Sequence record: OK335775.1
Origin: Escherichia phage PSD2002
Length of the DNA: 64,000 bases
Direction: 5' to 3' (one strand)
A program made the translations under genes and the position numbers. The notes beneath the pieces are model-generated. The model did no database searches. It was not told the DNA's origin and saw only the letters and a program-made list of their open reading frames with translations. Below are positions 4,896 through 17,207 of this stretch, one piece after another. Position 1 is the stretch's first letter. Each line of letters starts with the position of its first letter.

Positions 4896-5328
4896 GATTA
4901 ACAGAAATTTAGTTATCAAAAAACTTTGTTGTAAAAATCCAAATGCACAAGCATACAGGATGTTTTGGAGCGACGACCACCAATACCTAGGTTATTTTCT
5001 TGTTGATAGCGATGATCGAATTACAATGGCTCATAAACTTCTTAACAGAGAATTAAACCATTGGCAAGAACTTATTGCGGTGAGGTCTAAATTATTTTCT
5101 CGCAATACAATGCACCAATTGGTTTATTTTTTCGCCGAAGGTATTCCTGACAAGGTTGAGTTTGATGGATTCGAATTTAAAGACATCCTCCCAGACAACG
5201 AATTGAACGACCGCGTTAATATGGACATCCCTAGCAAGTATATCAAAAACAGTCTGTTGAAAATTCTGGAAGCTCCGGTTTATTCAATAGATGACCAGAT
5301 TTTTAATGCCTTTATGAATCGAGGTTAA
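4888..5328 (+). CDS. Hypothetical protein
   Basis: 146-aa ORF beginning at GTG 4888 (start uncertain), SD AAGAGG upstream; no similarity recognised. Confidence 0.45.
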   Translation: MNKINRNLVIKKLCCKNPNAQAYRMFWSDDHQYLGYFLVDSDDRITMAHKLLNRELNHWQELIAVRSKLFSRNTMHQLVYFFAEGIPDKVEFDGFEFKDILPDNELNDRVNMDIPSKYIKNSLLKILEAPVYSIDDQIFNAFMNRG

Positions 5329-5329
5329 T

Positions 5330-5551
5330 ATGTTTGTCTTAACTCAATTCTCTAAAGCGGTGTATAGTTACTCTTGTCAGTGGGAAGTCTTTATCGATTC
5401 TCCTTCACCTAAGTACGGTGTTTTTGGTCGAGTAACTACTCAAGCTTATGTTGCACGGCCAACTAAGCGCCAGCTTCGTAAACTTAAAAAGGCCCATCGC
5501 CAACTGATTGAGAGAAGGGAACAATATGAGTGCAATGTGTACGGGCTCTAA
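5330..5551 (+). CDS. Hypothetical small protein with basic C-terminal tail
   Basis: 73 aa; PTKRQLRKLKK motif paralogous to the tail of ORF 4303..4542. Confidence 0.45.
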   Translation: MFVLTQFSKAVYSYSCQWEVFIDSPSPKYGVFGRVTTQAYVARPTKRQLRKLKKAHRQLIERREQYECNVYGL

Positions 5552-5717
5552 GATTTCTGTATTCGAATTATTCGAAGAGTATGAAATCGTATCAAAGGAC
5601 CAAGAAGCTATCCATATTATTGCCGGTGATGGTGTGACTTGGATTATCCCACTGTATCATGAAGATACCTATGAAGTCACTGATGCGAATGGTGATAAAG
5701 CTATTTTCGTAATATAA
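5526..5717 (+). CDS. Hypothetical small protein
   Basis: ATG at 5526 after GAAGGG; ORF track begins at TTG 5508. Overlaps the end of the preceding ORF. Confidence 0.35.
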   Translation: MSAMCTGSKISVFELFEEYEIVSKDQEAIHIIAGDGVTWIIPLYHEDTYEVTDANGDKAIFVI

Positions 5718-5720
5718 ATA
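5713..5720 (+). promoter_or_regulatory. Late promoter motif TATAAATA
   Basis: Exact TATAAATA upstream of the small ORF at 5735. Confidence 0.4.
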
Positions 5721-5734
5721 AGGCCAGGAGCCTA

Positions 5735-5895
5735 TGAAATCTTTTAAAGAAGTTATGAACGAAGATATGGTCGCAGGCGATGCAGGTGGTAACCCATCTA
5801 ATATTGCCTCCGGAACTACCTCAGGCGCAGTCGTCAATAAAGGGCCTGAACAAATCCCATCTAAAAAGCGTAAAGAAAAATCCGAAAACGAATGA
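5735..5895 (+). CDS. Hypothetical small protein, possibly late-expressed
   Basis: 53-aa ORF below the ORF-track cutoff; SD AGGAG at 5725 and TATAAATA at 5713-5720 directly upstream. Confidence 0.35.
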
Positions 5896-5933
5896 TATAA
5901 TGGCTCTATTAATTTAGAGCCCAAGGAAAAATA

Positions 5934-6962
5934 ATGTCATATGTCGATAGAGAATTTGCTGTACGTGCCTTGAATTACCAACCTAAATTCAGACAAGTAA
6001 CTGGTAGTGATTTTAAATTAAACTGTCGTTGTCGTGTATGTGGCGACTCCCAAAAAGATGAGAACAAAGCTCGTTTTTGGGCCTATCCGGCTAATGATGG
6101 CTCCGTAATGCTGCACTGTTTTAACTGCGACTATTCAGCAGGAATTAAGAAGTATCTATACGAATATGAGCCGGATTTATATCGAGAATATATTCTTGAG
6201 AAACATAAAGAGCAATCGTTCGGGAGACAAGCTGCACCTAAGGTGGAGATATCTGAAAAAATTAAAGCTAAGATGCCTGTCATCGAAAAGCTTAATTTCT
6301 GTGAACGATTAGATAGAATGCCGAAGGACCATCCTATTATCAAATATGTAACACTACGTTGCATTCCTGAAAACAAATGGAATCGCTTATGGTTTACTAA
6401 AGAATGGCCGGCATTGGTGAACTCTGTCAATCCAGGGACCTATTCTAAAGAAATGCCTGAGCCTCGTTTGGTTATTCCAATTTTCAATAAGAATAAACAA
6501 ATTGAAAGTTTTCAGGGTCGAGCCTTACGTAAAGATGCTCCACAAAAGTATATTACAATAAAAGCTCATGACCAAGCTACAAAAATATATGGAATGGATA
6601 CAGTTGACGAACGTCAGTTGGTGTGGGTAATGGAAGGTCCTATTGATTCATTATTCGTACCTAATGCAATAGCAATTACTGGCGGGTCGTTGGACTTGGC
6701 TATGGTTCCGTGCAAAGAAACTAGGGTTTGGGCCCTTGATAGCGAAAGCCGCCACCCAGATACTATTTCAAGAATGAAAAAGCTTATCGAGGCTGGTGAA
6801 AAAGTAGTGTTTTGGGATAAGGTCCCTTGGCCTTCTAAAGATATTAACGATATGATTAGAAAAGACGGGGCGTCGCCGGAAGCAATACTAGAATATATGA
6901 AAAGTAATTACAGTCAAGGATTAATGGCTAAATTGAGATTACAACGGTATGCTAAAATATGA
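5934..6962 (+). CDS. 61: Gp61 DNA primase
   Basis: 342 aa; N-terminal zinc-binding CRCRVCGD...CFNC and Toprim-like core; matches T4 gp61 in size and sequence as recalled. Confidence 0.95.
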   Translation: MSYVDREFAVRALNYQPKFRQVTGSDFKLNCRCRVCGDSQKDENKARFWAYPANDGSVMLHCFNCDYSAGIKKYLYEYEPDLYREYILEKHKEQSFGRQAAPKVEISEKIKAKMPVIEKLNFCERLDRMPKDHPIIKYVTLRCIPENKWNRLWFTKEWPALVNSVNPGTYSKEMPEPRLVIPIFNKNKQIESFQGRALRKDAPQKYITIKAHDQATKIYGMDTVDERQLVWVMEGPIDSLFVPNAIAITGGSLDLAMVPCKETRVWALDSESRHPDTISRMKKLIEAGEKVVFWDKVPWPSKDINDMIRKDGASPEAILEYMKSNYSQGLMAKLRLQRYAKI

Positions 6963-7714
6963 ATTATAATAAAATTTATGACGATTTGGTTAATAGGGCC
7001 CTTGAAAGGGGTCTTATTAAAGAAAATTTAAAATACTATACAGAATCTCATCATATTATACCTGAATGTATAGGTGGGCCTGATATAGATTCAAACAAAG
7101 TATTATTTACGGCAAGAGAGCATTTTATAGCTCACATATTATTGTATAAGATTTATAAGTTGCCTAAATTAATATATGCTGTGCATATGATGTGCAATTC
7201 TAGCGAAAAGCACCAAAGAAATTCTAAGATGTATGACTGGCTTAGAAAGGAGCATAAAGCAGCCTTAAGTAAGAAAATGACCGATGCTTGGAAAGCCCCT
7301 GAATTTAGGACCAAAATGGTGGCGGCCTTATACCAAAGGCACAAAGATAAGCCCGTCACAGAGGAGACTAGGGAAAAACAGTCTAATTCTCTAAAGAGGT
7401 ATTATAAAGAAAATCCTATCTCTGAAGAAGCAAAAAAGAAAAATTCAGAAGCCCAAAAACAAAGGTTTAAAGATAGGCCTCAAACAGAAGAAACAAAAAG
7501 ATTAAGGAAGGACTCATGCAGAAAAACCCAAGGCACCCCTATATGGTTATGTAATTCGAATGGGGTAGGAATAGAAAAGTTTTCTTCTGCGGCAGAAGCT
7601 AAAGAAATCTTAGGATTGTCCGGGCACACCCAAAATATATACACCGCTTGTAAGCGAAACAAAGAAACCGGGAGATTGTATAAATCCTCCGGTTTAATTT
7701 GGAAATATCAATAA
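6959..7714 (+). CDS. HNH-family homing endonuclease (Mob/I-Hmu-like)
   Basis: 251 aa; HNH core HHIIPECIGGPD...N...EHFIAH followed by a Lys/Glu-rich repeat region and a C-terminal DNA-binding-like module; start overlaps the gene 61 stop (ATGA); markedly AT-rich codon usage compared with flanking genes. Confidence 0.8.
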   Translation: MNYNKIYDDLVNRALERGLIKENLKYYTESHHIIPECIGGPDIDSNKVLFTAREHFIAHILLYKIYKLPKLIYAVHMMCNSSEKHQRNSKMYDWLRKEHKAALSKKMTDAWKAPEFRTKMVAALYQRHKDKPVTEETREKQSNSLKRYYKENPISEEAKKKNSEAQKQRFKDRPQTEETKRLRKDSCRKTQGTPIWLCNSNGVGIEKFSSAAEAKEILGLSGHTQNIYTACKRNKETGRLYKSSGLIWKYQ

Positions 7715-7720
7715 TGGCAT

Positions 7721-7921
7721 TTAAACCTGCATACCTGTAAAGAATCCAATGATGCTCAACACGTGTTCCATAGTAACCGCAGGGAGAGTAATACCCTGAC
7801 TAGCCGCAACAGGTACAACTAAAAGATTCCATAGGAACACATCTAAAGCAAGGAAGCCCATCATGAGCTTTTTATCTTTCTTGCTGGTTAATTTCCAAAT
7901 TTGGTAAAATATACTACCCAT
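7721..7921 (-). CDS. Small hydrophobic (membrane) protein, antisense to the early-gene block
   Basis: 66 aa on - strand, strong SD (AGGAGG 5 nt before ATG), TATAAATA late-promoter motif on - strand at 7943-7950; fills a 206-bp gap not covered by any + strand ORF. Confidence 0.45.
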   Translation of the reverse strand: MGSIFYQIWKLTSKKDKKLMMGFLALDVFLWNLLVVPVAASQGITLPAVTMEHVLSIIGFFTGMQV

Positions 7922-7942
7922 GTTATCCTCCTGTTAAATTAA

Positions 7943-7950
7943 TATTTATA
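7943..7950 (-). promoter_or_regulatory. Late promoter motif TATAAATA for antisense small ORF
   Basis: TATTTATA on + strand, i.e. TATAAATA on - strand, about 22 nt upstream of the - strand ATG at 7921. Confidence 0.45.
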
Positions 7951-7953
7951 TCT

Positions 7954-7977
7954 TGCTTTACAAATTAATGATATAAT
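7954..7977 (+). promoter_or_regulatory. Middle promoter (MotA box TGCTTTA + TATAAT) for gene 56
   Basis: TGCTTTA at 7954-7960, 11 bp spacer, TATAAT at 7972-7977. Confidence 0.55.
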
Positions 7978-8020
7978 TATCTAACTTATTACCTAATATG
8001 AATTGAAAAGGAAAAATATA

Positions 8021-8536
8021 ATGGCTCATTTTAACGAATGTAGTGGTTTGATTGCAGGTGTTGATAAAGCTGAGGAAGCTTATGTTAGTGCAATTACCAA
8101 AGGTATCGACCCACTGCAGGTTATGCTTGATATGCAGAAATCTTTACAGGTTCGTCTGGCTAATGACCGTGATTATTGTTACCACCCGGATAAACTGGCT
8201 ACTGCAGGTGATGTTGTTGGATGGATGCGCGAACAGAAAGACTGCATCGATGATGAATTCCGTGAACTTCTGACTTCACTTGGTGAAATGTCTAAAGGTG
8301 AGAAAGATGCTTCTGCCGTCTGGAAAAAATGGAAGGCACGTTACCCAGAAGCTCAGTCTAAACGTATTGATGAAATGAGCCCTGAAGACCAGTTGGAAAT
8401 TAAATTTGAACTTGTGGACATAATCCATTTCGTATTAAACATGGTTACAGGTCTTGGTATGACTTCTGAAGAATTGTTCAAACTTTATTATCTGAAAAAT
8501 CTTGAAAATTTCAAACGTCAGGACAATGGGTATTAA
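8021..8536 (+). CDS. 56: Gp56 dCTPase/dUTPase (dCTP pyrophosphatase)
   Basis: 171 aa from ATG 8021 (ORF track starts at TTG 8003); MAHFNEC... and long identical blocks match T4 gp56 as recalled. Confidence 0.9.
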   Translation: MAHFNECSGLIAGVDKAEEAYVSAITKGIDPLQVMLDMQKSLQVRLANDRDYCYHPDKLATAGDVVGWMREQKDCIDDEFRELLTSLGEMSKGEKDASAVWKKWKARYPEAQSKRIDEMSPEDQLEIKFELVDIIHFVLNMVTGLGMTSEELFKLYYLKNLENFKRQDNGY

Positions 8537-8540
8537 TCAG

Positions 8541-8548
8541 TATAAATA
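8541..8548 (+). promoter_or_regulatory. Late promoter TATAAATA for soc
   Basis: Exact TATAAATA about 30 nt upstream of the soc start; soc is a late gene in T4. Confidence 0.65.
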
Positions 8549-8579
8549 CACCTGTAATTAAACAACAAAGGAGTTAATT

Positions 8580-8813
8580 ATGGGTGGTTTCGTTAATATC
8601 AAAACCTTTACACATCCAGCTGGTGAAGGTAAAGAAGTTAAAGGTACTGAGGTTTCGGTCCCGTTTGAGATTTATTCAAACGAGCACCGTATTGCAGACT
8701 CTCATTATCAGACTTTCCCTTCGGCCGTTGCAGCCTATACTACTGTAGTGACTGATGCAGCCGATTGGCGAACTAAGAACGCAGCAATGTTCACGCCGAC
8801 CCCAGTAGTTTAA
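8580..8813 (+). CDS. soc: Soc small outer capsid protein
   Basis: 77 aa; VNIKTF...HYQTFPS..AAYTTV matches T4 Soc; TATAAATA late promoter at 8541-8548; terminator downstream. Confidence 0.85.
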   Translation: MGGFVNIKTFTHPAGEGKEVKGTEVSVPFEIYSNEHRIADSHYQTFPSAVAAYTTVVTDAADWRTKNAAMFTPTPVV

Positions 8814-8819
8814 TTATAA

Positions 8820-8842
8820 GGAACCTTCGGGTTCCTTTTTTG
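8820..8842 (+). terminator. Rho-independent terminator after soc
   Basis: GGAACC-TTCG-GGTTCC hairpin plus T-run. Confidence 0.7.
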
Positions 8843-8907
8843 GTTTTAAGGGTTTACTTTCTAAGAAGGTTATGTTAAGATGGTCTTATCTTATAGAGGA
8901 GAACACT

Positions 8908-9117
8908 ATGTTAAATCGTTGGATTAAACCAAATAAATCTTTGGATGAAATTATCGCTAATCATGTATTGAAAAAGTACTTTTATACTCCTTGGTATACC
9001 GAAGTTATTGTCCATTCATTTATGATGCATGAAGACGGTTCTATCGAATTTAATGCCGAAATCCGTCACGAGACTGATGATATCGATAAAGTTGAATTTA
9101 AACGAGGTTTCCTATGA
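8908..9117 (+). CDS. Hypothetical small protein
   Basis: ATG 8908 after AGAGGAG; the ORF-track start at 8872 lies in the promoter -10 region. Confidence 0.4.
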   Translation: MLNRWIKPNKSLDEIIANHVLKKYFYTPWYTEVIVHSFMMHEDGSIEFNAEIRHETDDIDKVEFKRGFL

Positions 9118-9437
9118 TTCGTTGGCTTAAGAATTTTTTCAAGACCAAACCTGGTGAAGGGGTGGTTCCTATCTCAGGTCTGAAGGAATATGTTTATGTG
9201 GGCGATGGTATGATGGAAGAAGTTATCCGTCAACCTGAAAAAGCAGGTAATGTAGGCCCGGGTGCCCTTCCTTTGAATTCTAAAAAGTTTAAAGAGCATC
9301 TAGAAGCTCGTCGCACAAGCCATATTGATACTACTCCTATTATGGTTGCGGCTGCTGTCAGTTCTTGGACTGGTGATTCTTCTTATTCGTCTTATGACTC
9401 AGGAAGCTGTGACTCATCGTCCGGCTCGTGTGATTAA
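9114..9437 (+). CDS. Hypothetical protein with Ser/Cys-rich C-terminal tail
   Basis: 107-aa ORF; C-terminus SSWTGDSSYSSYDSGSCDSSSGSCD. Confidence 0.45.
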   Translation: MIRWLKNFFKTKPGEGVVPISGLKEYVYVGDGMMEEVIRQPEKAGNVGPGALPLNSKKFKEHLEARRTSHIDTTPIMVAAAVSSWTGDSSYSSYDSGSCDSSSGSCD

Positions 9438-9637
9438 TGAAACCTTTATCATGGCTTAAAGATTGGCTGGACCGTCCTGGTGATTATCTTGATGACGGGT
9501 GGTTGGACCAAGCTAATGCAGAAATGAAACGCGAGTCCGAAGAATGGATTCTTAAAGGTATCCGTGAAGAACGCGAAAAGAAATTAGAACGCGAAGCTCT
9601 TAGAATTATGCGTGACATCTATGGGGATAAATCATGA
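9437..9637 (+). CDS. Hypothetical small protein
   Basis: 66-aa ORF in tight array with neighbours. Confidence 0.4.
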
Positions 9638-9801
9638 CTACTGAAGAGGCCGAAAAACAAGCTAAAGAGGCACTGGATTTGCTTCTTAAAATTGGTAGTA
9701 AAATGATGAAAGAAAACGAGAAATACATCCAAGAAAATAAAATTCCGGATGGTCCTTTAGTAGGTAAACTAAGAAGAGGAAATCATAATGAAAGTTTATG
9801 A
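9634..9801 (+). CDS. Hypothetical small protein
   Basis: 55-aa ORF below the track cutoff, start overlaps the previous stop; fills an otherwise non-coding interval. Confidence 0.3.
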
Positions 9802-10276
9802 ACTAGAATTCTTTGTTCGTGATTCTGCCGGACAAACGCGTCCTTATGATGCTACGGCGTGTCTTATCCTTGTCGATAATGGTACGAATTCTATAACCCA
9901 GCTAGAAACACGATTAAAAGATATTAAGCCACCAGAAAATATTCTAATGAAGGCATATCATAATAAAAATGTTGATGTTGCTGAGGGTTGTCCTTTTAGC
10001 CTGGCTGAAGCATTACATATCAAGGGTTATCGCCATCCGGACCCGTATGGCGAAGGAACAATGGACATTTTCTATAAAGATACCGATAGAATGTCCAACG
10101 AACGTCTTAAAGGTCGTACTTATCTTATTTCCGCTACCGAAGACCTTATTGAAGTTGAACGTCAGATTTGGAAGCACTTTGATATTGGATTGCGCTTTAC
10201 CATGACTGAAGACGCTATTCGTGATGCTAAGGTACGAGCTCGTATGTACGAGTACGGTCCTATCGGTGGTTACTAA
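9788..10276 (+). CDS. Hypothetical protein (occupies the mrh position of T4)
   Basis: 162-aa ORF with SD AGAGGA; assignment by position only. Confidence 0.45.
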
Positions 10277-16364: not shown

Positions 16365-16916
16365 ATGATTACTATCGGTGAAATTGTTCGTGTATCCAAA
16401 GAATCTCGCTCAAAAGCCGCAGGTCGTTTTGTTGAAGTTGCTGGTATTCGTACTAATTTAGTAGGTGGAATTAAAGAAGTTAAAGTGCGTATTATTCCTA
16501 AAAATGGCCAGACTGAAACTCAATTCGCTTATGTGCATCCTAAATTCCTGGAATCAACTGAATTCACTGGACACATCGCTCCTGTAGTTGAAGAAGTTGA
16601 ATCCCATGATGGGTATGTATGTGAAAGCAATGATATCCGTGGCGTAGTAGCTCAAGACGTTGAAACTATTGACCAATCTCATGTTGGTGTTGATTTCAAA
16701 TGGAAATTAGGTAAAGGTGTCTTTTTCGTTTCACCTAAACCGTTTGAATACAATTGCAAGTATGGTCCGACTTATGAAACCACTAGTATGTCCGGTTACA
16801 TCACAGACCAATGGGTTGAAGAAGGTGTTAAGCTGTATAACATCGTGTTCCTTGGCACCTTTAAAGTAGTTCCTGAAAGTTTTATTGTTGAGTACGCTGA
16901 TATTCATTTTGCATAA
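16365..16916 (+). CDS. Hypothetical protein, paralog family A
   Basis: 183 aa; C-terminal block TDQWVEEGVKLYNIVFLGTFKVVP. Confidence 0.5.
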   Translation: MITIGEIVRVSKESRSKAAGRFVEVAGIRTNLVGGIKEVKVRIIPKNGQTETQFAYVHPKFLESTEFTGHIAPVVEEVESHDGYVCESNDIRGVVAQDVETIDQSHVGVDFKWKLGKGVFFVSPKPFEYNCKYGPTYETTSMSGYITDQWVEEGVKLYNIVFLGTFKVVPESFIVEYADIHFA

Positions 16917-16988
16917 AGTTTAAAAACAGTATACAACAGGGTAGTAGTGTGATACTATTACCCTATCAACAAATGAGAGGAAAATAAA

Positions 16989-17207
16989 ATGGCTAAAGTT
17001 ACTGTGAACTCGACTCGTGAAGAATTTGAAGATGTTCTGTTCAACCCTGATTTAATCGTGGTTCAAAAGGAACATTCTGATACGTTTTCTCATTTATCGT
17101 CGGTTTATGTATACGAAAACCAAGGTGATGAAAACCCTATCTATGCGGTGTTCCGTGAAATCACTGCTGAAGGCACCGACTTCTGGAAGGAAACTTATAA
17201 TGCTTAA
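16989..17207 (+). CDS. Hypothetical small protein
   Basis: 72-aa ORF after early promoter. Confidence 0.4.
   Translation: MAKVTVNSTREEFEDVLFNPDLIVVQKEHSDTFSHLSSVYVYENQGDENPIYAVFREITAEGTDFWKETYNA

Follow-up and report, generated by a model that had tools for sequence, protein, structure and literature searches.

The locus directly downstream of the DNA primase gene (gene 61) of Escherichia phage PSD2002 raises the question of whether the open reading frame (ORF) which begins inside the gene 61 stop codon is a mobile gene, and if so which DNA its product would attack. The sequence analysed, referred to as the window, is the whole stretch of 64,000 nucleotides (nt) from record OK335775.1. T-even phages are well known to owe mosaicism and marker exclusion to free-standing homing endonucleases, and the element itself is of an expected kind, though the signal from the comparisons is unusually clean. 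What is added here is a five-lineage family located at the primase stop, a testable target at a catalytic-motif codon and a candidate immunity substitution. The ORF is very probably an intact, promoterless, free-standing homing endonuclease gene (HEG) of the T4 Mob type, which would home, with co-conversion of flanking DNA, following cleavage of the primase gene of HEG-less genomes (genomes with and without the gene are termed HEG+ and HEG-less). That the gene is a mobile, inserted element accompanied by ∼250 bp of foreign primase 3' end and by a foreign copy of the downstream ORF is well supported.

A first-pass annotation made from the sequence alone had described the ORF, with its start overlapping the gene 61 stop, as an HNH homing endonuclease gene and a lineage-specific mobile insertion. 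The ORF and the overlap were found as described (Table 1). The window region belongs to Dhakavirus, the JS98-like T-even coliphages, and its nearest record is phage Bp7 with 94.9% identity over positions 5000–10000. Among 50,697 phage records Bp7 was the sole carrier of the HEG (99.7% nt identity, the next best match being ∼66%), while JS98, MX01, IME08, QL01 and other Dhakaviruses are without it. The exact protein of 251 amino acids (aa) is annotated as 'homing endonuclease' in PSD2002 and the Bp7 copy differs by E98D, hence annotations of the gene already exist in two GenBank genomes. A literature search combining Bp7 and homing endonuclease found no paper dealing with this HEG. Comparison of the interval between genes 61 and 56 across T-even genomes, a check which the first-pass annotation had proposed, defined a clean insertion of 762 bp relative to the HEG-less phages JS98, MX01 and IME08. 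The insert separates two stop codons that overlap in the HEG-less genomes, that of gene 61 and that of a convergent 66-aa ORF on the minus strand, and alignment with the same three phages shows that gene 61 receives a new Ile-stop from the insert. The junction ATATGAATTA is common to the window, DK-13, MHG19 and L102, that is, to most of the homologue lineages introduced below. Of the suggested placement between genes 61 and 56 the first half held, as the HEG adjoins gene 61; gene 56 is separated from it by the minus-strand ORF. The ORF is not present in all close relatives and its catalytic residues show no decay; presence in all of them, or decay, had been named in advance as speaking against a mobile insertion.

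Four other T-even lineages have full-length homologues, 47–60% identical including the C-terminal domain, directly behind the primase stop. These lineages are Gaprivervirus (phages DK-13 and RZ and Yersinia phage P8), Yersinia phage MHG19, the Logan contig L010 and a 180.7-kb metagenome contig, L102. Within Gaprivervirus the homologue occurs in these three phages among the 40 matches listed, most being without it. Sporadic presence and absence at a conserved locus is seen in Dhakavirus and also in Gaprivervirus. The similarities of HEG and primase are incongruent: the HEG of L010 is closest to that of the window, whereas the 5' part of the L010 primase gene is closest to that of T4. The gene is a member of a five-lineage Mob-type HEG family, always located at the primase stop, and this lineage is previously undescribed.

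The ORF upstream of the HEG was identified as gp61 by PHROG 47 (E 1.6e-96) and by its match to the solved T4 gp61 chain (E 3e-139). Compared with gene 61 of the HEG-less Dhakaviruses, it is 95–97% identical over the first 776 nt and then 64–66% identical for the last 250 nt, a level observed between genera. Against JS98, 36 mismatches fall in nt 1–780 and 90 in nt 781–1029. Gaprivervirus provides a replicate in which gene 61 of DK-13 differs from that of the HEG-less phage P479 by 19 and 46 mismatches in the same two segments. Downstream of the HEG the identity between DK-13 and P479 is high at once but there is a 26-bp deletion in the 66-aa ORF. In the window the allele of the 66-aa ORF has 70–82% nt identity to the HEG-less Dhakaviruses; since this allele is foreign too, the ORF is considered part of the transferred block. 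Identity to the HEG-less Dhakaviruses is back to 94–98% at 7900–7950. The foreign 3' tract of the primase gene is interpreted as a co-converted donor flank. Its nearest match outside Bp7 in the phage collection was only ∼71% identical, indicating that the donor lineage is unsampled. When the 88 C-terminal aa of the foreign primase part were compared with a large protein database, no word matches were returned, a result uninformative on the donor.

The tract exchanges the C-terminal helix of the primase, known as helicase-interaction motif 2 (HIM2) in T4 gp61, and the contact between primase and helicase is therefore of foreign origin. Residues 327–342 of gp61 (6912–6959), in this helicase-interaction helix, read QGLMAKLRLQRYAKI in the window and QGLMAKMRLSKYSKI in the HEG-less Dhakaviruses. 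Gene 61 of the window is a clear case of a natural chimeric essential replication gene produced by co-conversion.

The block shared with Bp7 extends beyond the insertion on both sides and is 99.8% identical (four mismatches in 1949 bp) within a background of ∼94%. A third background, the metagenomic contig L092, is identical to the window only over ∼6700–8100 and diverges on both sides. The block occurs in at least three Dhakavirus backgrounds, and its ends differ between them around a common core, which points to recombination having taken place repeatedly about the HEG. The exact protein is also encoded on ten short Logan contigs, which come from different runs; they start at 6608–6690 and five end at 7946 or 7949. 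Such ends are consistent with assembly-graph branch points at the edges of the cassette, although this is soft evidence. Flanking co-conversion is indicated by the abrupt fall of identity inside gene 61, by the three backgrounds and by the Gaprivervirus replicate.

The ORF had also been called much more AT-rich than the flanking genes. This was overstated: its GC (guanine plus cytosine) content is 35.4% versus 39.5% for the window and 39.1% for gene 61, at the 5th percentile of 756-bp windows. The part of the claim that stood concerns the first 300 bp of the ORF, which are clearly low in GC (30.0%, 0.8th percentile), the rest being 39%. A GC content of ∼36% is found for the HEGs of all five lineages. 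As the foreign primase tract, at 39.8%, resembles its surroundings, the argument from composition is weak and was dropped as a sign of foreign origin.

No Shine-Dalgarno sequence is present ahead of the HEG start. A scan of 5700–8700 for sigma-70 promoters and terminators gave counts not above those of shuffled sequences, and no dedicated HEG promoter is claimed. Given that the gene has neither its own promoter nor a Shine-Dalgarno sequence, it is probably co-transcribed with gene 61 and translationally coupled to it. The predicted RNA fold around the start codon (6915–7005) had z = −2.1, with 7 of 200 shuffles equally stable, which is too weak for translational sequestration. The HEG is intergenic, neither intron- nor intein-encoded, and promoterless by the scan, as would be looked for in a Mob-type cassette.

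The protein matches PHROG 655, 'homing endonuclease', with E 3.6e-52. Searching T4-type phages with tblastn gave annotated mobE of RB55 (36.4% identity, E 2e-18, covering 82% of the query) and mobD of RB3 (38.0%, E 4e-16), in agreement with the proposed membership of a phage endonuclease family. An alignment was made of 30 homologues taken from a set of 5.8 billion proteins. The clear HNH core reported by the first-pass annotation is reflected in the residues invariant throughout this alignment, M1, Y3, Y27, E29, H31, H32, I33, P35, G40, N46, T51, E54, H55 and H59, which include the H-N-H spacing of catalytic His (H31/H32), structural Asn (N46) and metal-binding His (H55/H59). The family profile aligns to the HNH motifs of McrA (6GHC), a group II intron maturase and Cas8-HNH with E values of 1.5e-4 to 8.5e-3. 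The Pfam HNH family PF01844 scored below its gathering cut-off of 21.4 bits, with 13.6 bits for the whole protein and 14.9 bits for the isolated domain. It was found at E ≤ 0.01 in 20 of the 30 homologues, and membership of the HNH superfamily is thus assigned by transitive homology.

The repetitive middle region rich in Lys and Glu was also recovered. Residues K, E and R make up 42% of aa 96–190 versus 28% of the whole protein, and three helix repeats of the form PxT/SEE(T/A)K/R are present, which would be extended DNA-binding helices of the NUMOD3 type. On the isolated segment NUMOD3 (PF07460) reached 13.9 bits, below its gathering score of 20.4. It is carried by 23 of the 30 homologues and the repeats in the window align to those segments. 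The C-terminal segment reached 14.5 bits with NUMOD1 (PF07453), against a gathering score of 22.8; HNH, NUMOD3 and NUMOD1 were the sub-threshold Pfam matches obtained on the three separated segments. A few of the 30 homologues carry NUMOD1, I-HmuI_NUMOD-like (four of them) or I-TevI_DNA-bd, and the C-terminal 60 aa align with such members, which agrees with the earlier description of a C-terminal module typical of phage free-standing endonucleases. The C-terminal domain is 54–70% identical among the primase-linked lineages and is conserved at least as well as the HNH domain. The NUMOD3 and NUMOD1 modules of this protein are degenerate versions.

An AlphaFold2 (AF2) model of the protein had a mean pLDDT (predicted local distance difference test score) of 88.8. 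In it, strands 29–32 and 47–50 and helix 52–66 form a candidate beta-beta-alpha core, followed by five long helices and a beta-beta-helix-helix-beta-beta C-terminal domain. The top Foldseek match of the model in the PDB was I-HmuI with probability 0.95, but this match is weak (E 0.064, TM 0.2–0.26, 19% aligned identity). Searching all PDB sequences with phmmer gave no match at E ≤ 1. The sole NCBIfam match, a sub-threshold holin, was judged spurious. Between lineages pN (the proportion of non-synonymous differences) is 0.23–0.33 and pS (synonymous) is saturated at 0.78–0.88; the ratio of the corresponding rates, dN/dS, is 0.21 for DK-13 versus P8. Decay to a pseudogene was ruled out as all lineages have full-length ORFs with the invariant motifs. 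The product is thus an intact HNH endonuclease of the Mob type, in which degenerate NUMOD3 helices are followed by a NUMOD1-like domain at the C-terminus.

On the pattern of MobE, SegF and SegG (PMC2988022, PMC2790892), the following course of events is envisaged. The HEG would be read from the gene 61 transcript, with low-level translation by termination-reinitiation at the ATGA. In a mixed infection the enzyme would bind the primase gene of a HEG-less genome and then nick or cut it. Repair from the HEG+ genome would copy the HEG and its flanks, that is, homing with co-conversion, seen as local marker exclusion. The target in the HEG+ genome would be resistant through the substitution of codon 270 and its neighbours.

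The position of the target is a separate question. On balance, and by a small degree only, the comparisons favour the sequence coding for D-N/H-E-P in the TOPRIM fold of the primase, ∼215 bp upstream of the insertion point. In T4 gp61 the TOPRIM fold extends from T217 to I326 with the catalytic residue E234, and HIM2 has been located (PMC10359460). The codon-270 segment falls within the TOPRIM fold and the co-transferred tract includes HIM2. From its position, D269-x-E271 would be the TOPRIM DxD-type metal-binding motif. The HEG-less phages read TGGGTWATGGAYMAYGAACC at this place. The segment is highly conserved among them, W-V/I-M/L-D-N/H-E-P-R-H/K, with the DNA consensus TGGGTTATGGACAATGAACC. 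Codon 270 is Ser, Ser, Ala, Ser and Ala in the five HEG+ lineages (5/5), and each of the 53 HEG-less primases has Asn or His there; these primases comprise 47 IMG/VR loci plus JS98, MX01, IME08, P479, VR7 and T4. Mismatches in the 24-nt core number 8–11 in the HEG+ lineages versus a mean of 3.9 in the HEG-less ones. Dense divergence from the HEG-less congeners begins 18–31 nt upstream of codon 270 in the window and 7 nt upstream in DK-13. HEG+ genomes are accordingly predicted, from these alleles, to be immune via the substituted codon 270 and its neighbours. A recombinant with the HEG and a sensitive site would cut itself and therefore everything between the resistant codon and the HEG would stay locked together, so that the left boundaries coincide.

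A scan by the allele alone served as a prospective test. The non-Asn/His codon-270 pattern was compared with 241 million metagenome records and recovered one 180.7-kb contig, L102, in which a HEG lies directly after the primase gene with the same ATGA. Two scans of IMG/VR for HEG-linked primase alleles gave no matches, a result informative only as to the rarity of the allele.

The enzyme might instead cut at the insertion point itself, where the gene 61 stop overlaps that of the minus-strand ORF. The insert would then disrupt its own site and the upstream tract would be ordinary bidirectional co-conversion. The use of the same point in five lineages with the ATATGAATTA junction kept would be accounted for, and the site would be kept in HEG-less phages since the HIM2 helix, encoded at the 3' end of gene 61, is conserved. 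However, in two genera the foreign tract has its left end within ∼30 nt of codon 270, whereas right ends range from 0 to >900 bp, and the codon-270 substitution, in every HEG+ lineage and in no HEG-less primase, has no part in such a scheme. Furthermore, MobE, SegF and SegG cut within a neighbouring gene, away from the insertion point (PMC2988022, PMC2790892). Cleavage at the insertion point is considered unlikely, though it is the foremost of the alternatives.

Some considerations weigh against homing from a TOPRIM target as preferred here. The pattern used in the metagenome scan was built from HEG+ alleles. A naive Fisher test of 5/5 versus 0/53 gives 2e-7, a figure that assumes too much independence, as the copies of the HEG-linked allele may be related by descent; if they are, and the allele hitch-hikes with the HEG, the codon-270 link is not phylogenetically independent. 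Cleavage, the choice between a nick and a double-strand break, and super-Mendelian inheritance are all things we infer by analogy. Finally, near-identical blocks between the window and Bp7 exist elsewhere too, at 5500–5800 and 16600–17000 (short and 100% identical), and part of the block structure could be ordinary recombination.

Taken further, these blocks, together with highly divergent segments such as 8900–9200, would suit ordinary homologous recombination of the kind that gives T4-like mosaicism, with the endonuclease gene as a passive or inactive passenger. This is quite improbable. Purifying selection acts on the protein, whose catalytic residues are all retained in five lineages despite saturation of synonymous sites, the site of insertion is the same across genera, the HEG and primase similarities are incongruent in L010, and the inter-genus divergence of the primase tract is more than would be expected if close relatives had exchanged DNA routinely. 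An ancestral or domesticated nuclease lost from most relatives, with a role in replication, repair or the exclusion of competitors and not selfish, would fit the tight ATGA coupling to the primase gene in five lineages and the occasional domestication of HNH nucleases (PMC10448857), but it is scarcely credible because vertical descent with loss leaves unexplained both the abrupt switch of identity in gene 61 and the nearly identical block in a 94% background, and because the HEG-less genomes retain no remnant, their two stop codons overlapping cleanly.

Returning to homing into the primase gene, it may tentatively be generalised to a pan-T-even Mob-type lineage with a TOPRIM D-x-E target, immunity by Asn/His270 to Ser/Ala substitution and a chimeric primase created at each transfer, as the C-terminal half of TOPRIM and HIM2 of a foreign primase are brought along; this wider proposal falls a little short of being probable. 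If it is correct, then a selfish element would repeatedly make inter-genus chimeric primases and reshuffle the primase-helicase interface. For therapeutic or engineered Dhakavirus cocktails, the HEG predicts biased inheritance of the 61–56 region in mixed infections.

The best parallel is MobE, the T4 free-standing HNH homing endonuclease encoded between nrdA and nrdB, which nicks nrdB beside a critical codon at which mobE+ phages are polymorphic (Wilson & Edgell 2009, PMC2790892). The two proteins share the N-terminal module MNY...Y-x-E-x-HHI-x-P...N...EH...H. Both genes lack a promoter and overlap an upstream essential gene, with read-through transcription described for mobE (PMC2988022) and predicted for the HEG. 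Mob genes often resist cloning (PMC2790892). MobE acts on a conserved critical part of a neighbouring gene, distant from its insertion, with protective polymorphisms and flank co-conversion, and the same is proposed for the HEG. The host site differs, and so does the target, which is nrdB for MobE and probably primase gene 61 for the HEG, and beyond the HNH domain there is family-level identity only. At the C-terminus the HEG product has a NUMOD1-like helix-turn-helix (HTH) whereas many T4-type Mob relatives have a CxxC...C zinc-finger-like motif. Primase gene 61 is not among the tabulated target genes of T4 endonucleases (PMC2988022).

I-HmuI of Bacillus phage SPO1 (PDB 1U3E) is an HNH nicking enzyme (PMC2988022). 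According to the AF2 model it has the same layout as the HEG product, namely an HNH domain, helices and a C-terminal HTH, but it is intron-encoded whereas the HEG is free-standing. The 'MobE' of IME08 (ADI55355.1) is likewise a Mob-type HNH protein encoded in the 61–56 interval in the same genus. It is only 37% identical, over the HNH domain alone, has no NUMOD1-like C-terminus, and its gene sits elsewhere, beyond the minus-strand ORF and a promoter-like element, overlapping the gene 56 start. SegF, the T4 GIY-YIG free-standing endonuclease encoded between 56 and soc (Belle et al. 2002, cited in PMC2988022), belongs to the same neighbourhood and is described in PMC2988022 as performing intronless homing with localized marker exclusion. 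It differs in its unrelated GIY-YIG fold, its insertion downstream of gene 56 and its target gene. The 61–56–soc region is thus a recurrent and already known hot spot of homing.

Table 1. Coordinates of the element, its flanks and neighbouring features in the window.
Feature	Position	Strand	Basis or remark
DNA primase gene 61, 342 aa, chimeric (native 5' 776 nt, foreign 3' 250 nt)	5934..6962	+	
Block common to window and Bp7	6663..8611	+	
Foreign 3' tract of gene 61, codons ∼260–342 (C-terminal TOPRIM part and HIM2)	6713..6958	+	
Predicted resistant version of target, W-A-L-D269-S270-E271-S-R	6729..6752	+	codon 270 = 6741–6743
Insertion of 762 bp relative to HEG-less JS98, MX01 and IME08	6957..7718	+	alignment; 2-bp junction ambiguity (AT)
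Free-standing HNH homing endonuclease gene, 251 aa + stop	6959..7714	+	ORF call, PHROG, phage-collection comparison
Overlap of HEG ATG (6959–6961) and gene 61 TGA (6960–6962) as ATGA	6959..6962	+	sequence
Mob-type HNH nuclease domain, aa 1–95	6959..7243	+	alignment, profile, AF2 model
Candidate catalytic residues H31/H32, N46, H55, H59	7049–7054, 7094–7096, 7121–7123, 7133–7135	+	alignment
K/E/R-rich helical linker with three NUMOD3-like repeats (aa 129–150, 151–171, 172–192)	7244..7528	+	AF2, Pfam, alignment
NUMOD1/I-HmuI-like beta-beta-HTH-beta-beta DNA-binding domain, C-terminal	7529..7711	+	Pfam sub-threshold, AF2, alignment
Hydrophobic 66-aa ORF, phrog_2024, function unknown	7721..7921	-	convergent with gene 61
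T4-type late promoter TATAAATA	7943..7950	-	22 nt upstream of minus-strand ORF ATG; right end of foreign tract
Gene 56, dCTPase, ATG start as in Bp7 annotation	8021..8536	+	downstream of cassette, not adjoining HEG

The contents of the 61–56 interval vary. The order in T4 is 61, a 310-bp gap, dam, 56, segF and soc, in keeping with the statement in the first-pass annotation that this slot holds other genes, including dam, in T4. The interval contains only the minus-strand ORF, unannotated, in JS98, and the minus-strand ORF plus ORF28 and dam in MX01. In IME08 and some others a different Mob-type gene is found just ahead of gene 56. Insertions also recur at a second hot spot, directly behind the promoter-like element that precedes gene 56 and equivalent to ∼7979–8020 of the window. 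It holds the other Mob-type HNH gene, overlapping the gene 56 start, in IME08 (L002, 2723–3379) and ORF28 and dam in MX01 (L004, 2752–4091), and is empty in JS98 and the window. The HEG-less Gapriverviruses P479 (L014, 2322–2596) and VR7 (L015, 2324–2634) have a segF-type GIY-YIG gene overlapping the gene 56 end, as in T4, and hence the sides of gene 56 are occupied by different selfish endonucleases in different lineages.

A strong ribosome-binding site, AGGAGG, precedes the minus-strand 66-aa ORF. JS98 and IME08 have the ORF intact, though without annotation; it is frameshifted by the 26-bp deletion in DK-13, deleted further in P8 and absent from MHG19 and L102; the T4 61–dam gap shows only a weak trace of it. 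In Yersinia phage P8 (L016, 2063–2164) the 33-aa remnant of this ORF is annotated as 'DNA packaging ATPase' in GenBank. Other names of neighbouring genes in the P8 record also look mis-annotated, for example 'major capsid domain-containing protein' for the gp61.1 homologue.

For gene 56 the automatic ORF call placed the start at a TTG at 8003; the ATG at 8021 has the better ribosome-binding site. At 7953–7977 on the plus strand, TTGCTTTA, an 11-nt spacer and TATAAT resemble a T4 MotA-dependent middle promoter for gene 56. To the right of the block shared with Bp7, over 8600–9300 (the soc 3' end and mrh.2/mrh.1), identity to Bp7 falls to 62–87%. The early region of the window is strongly mosaic.

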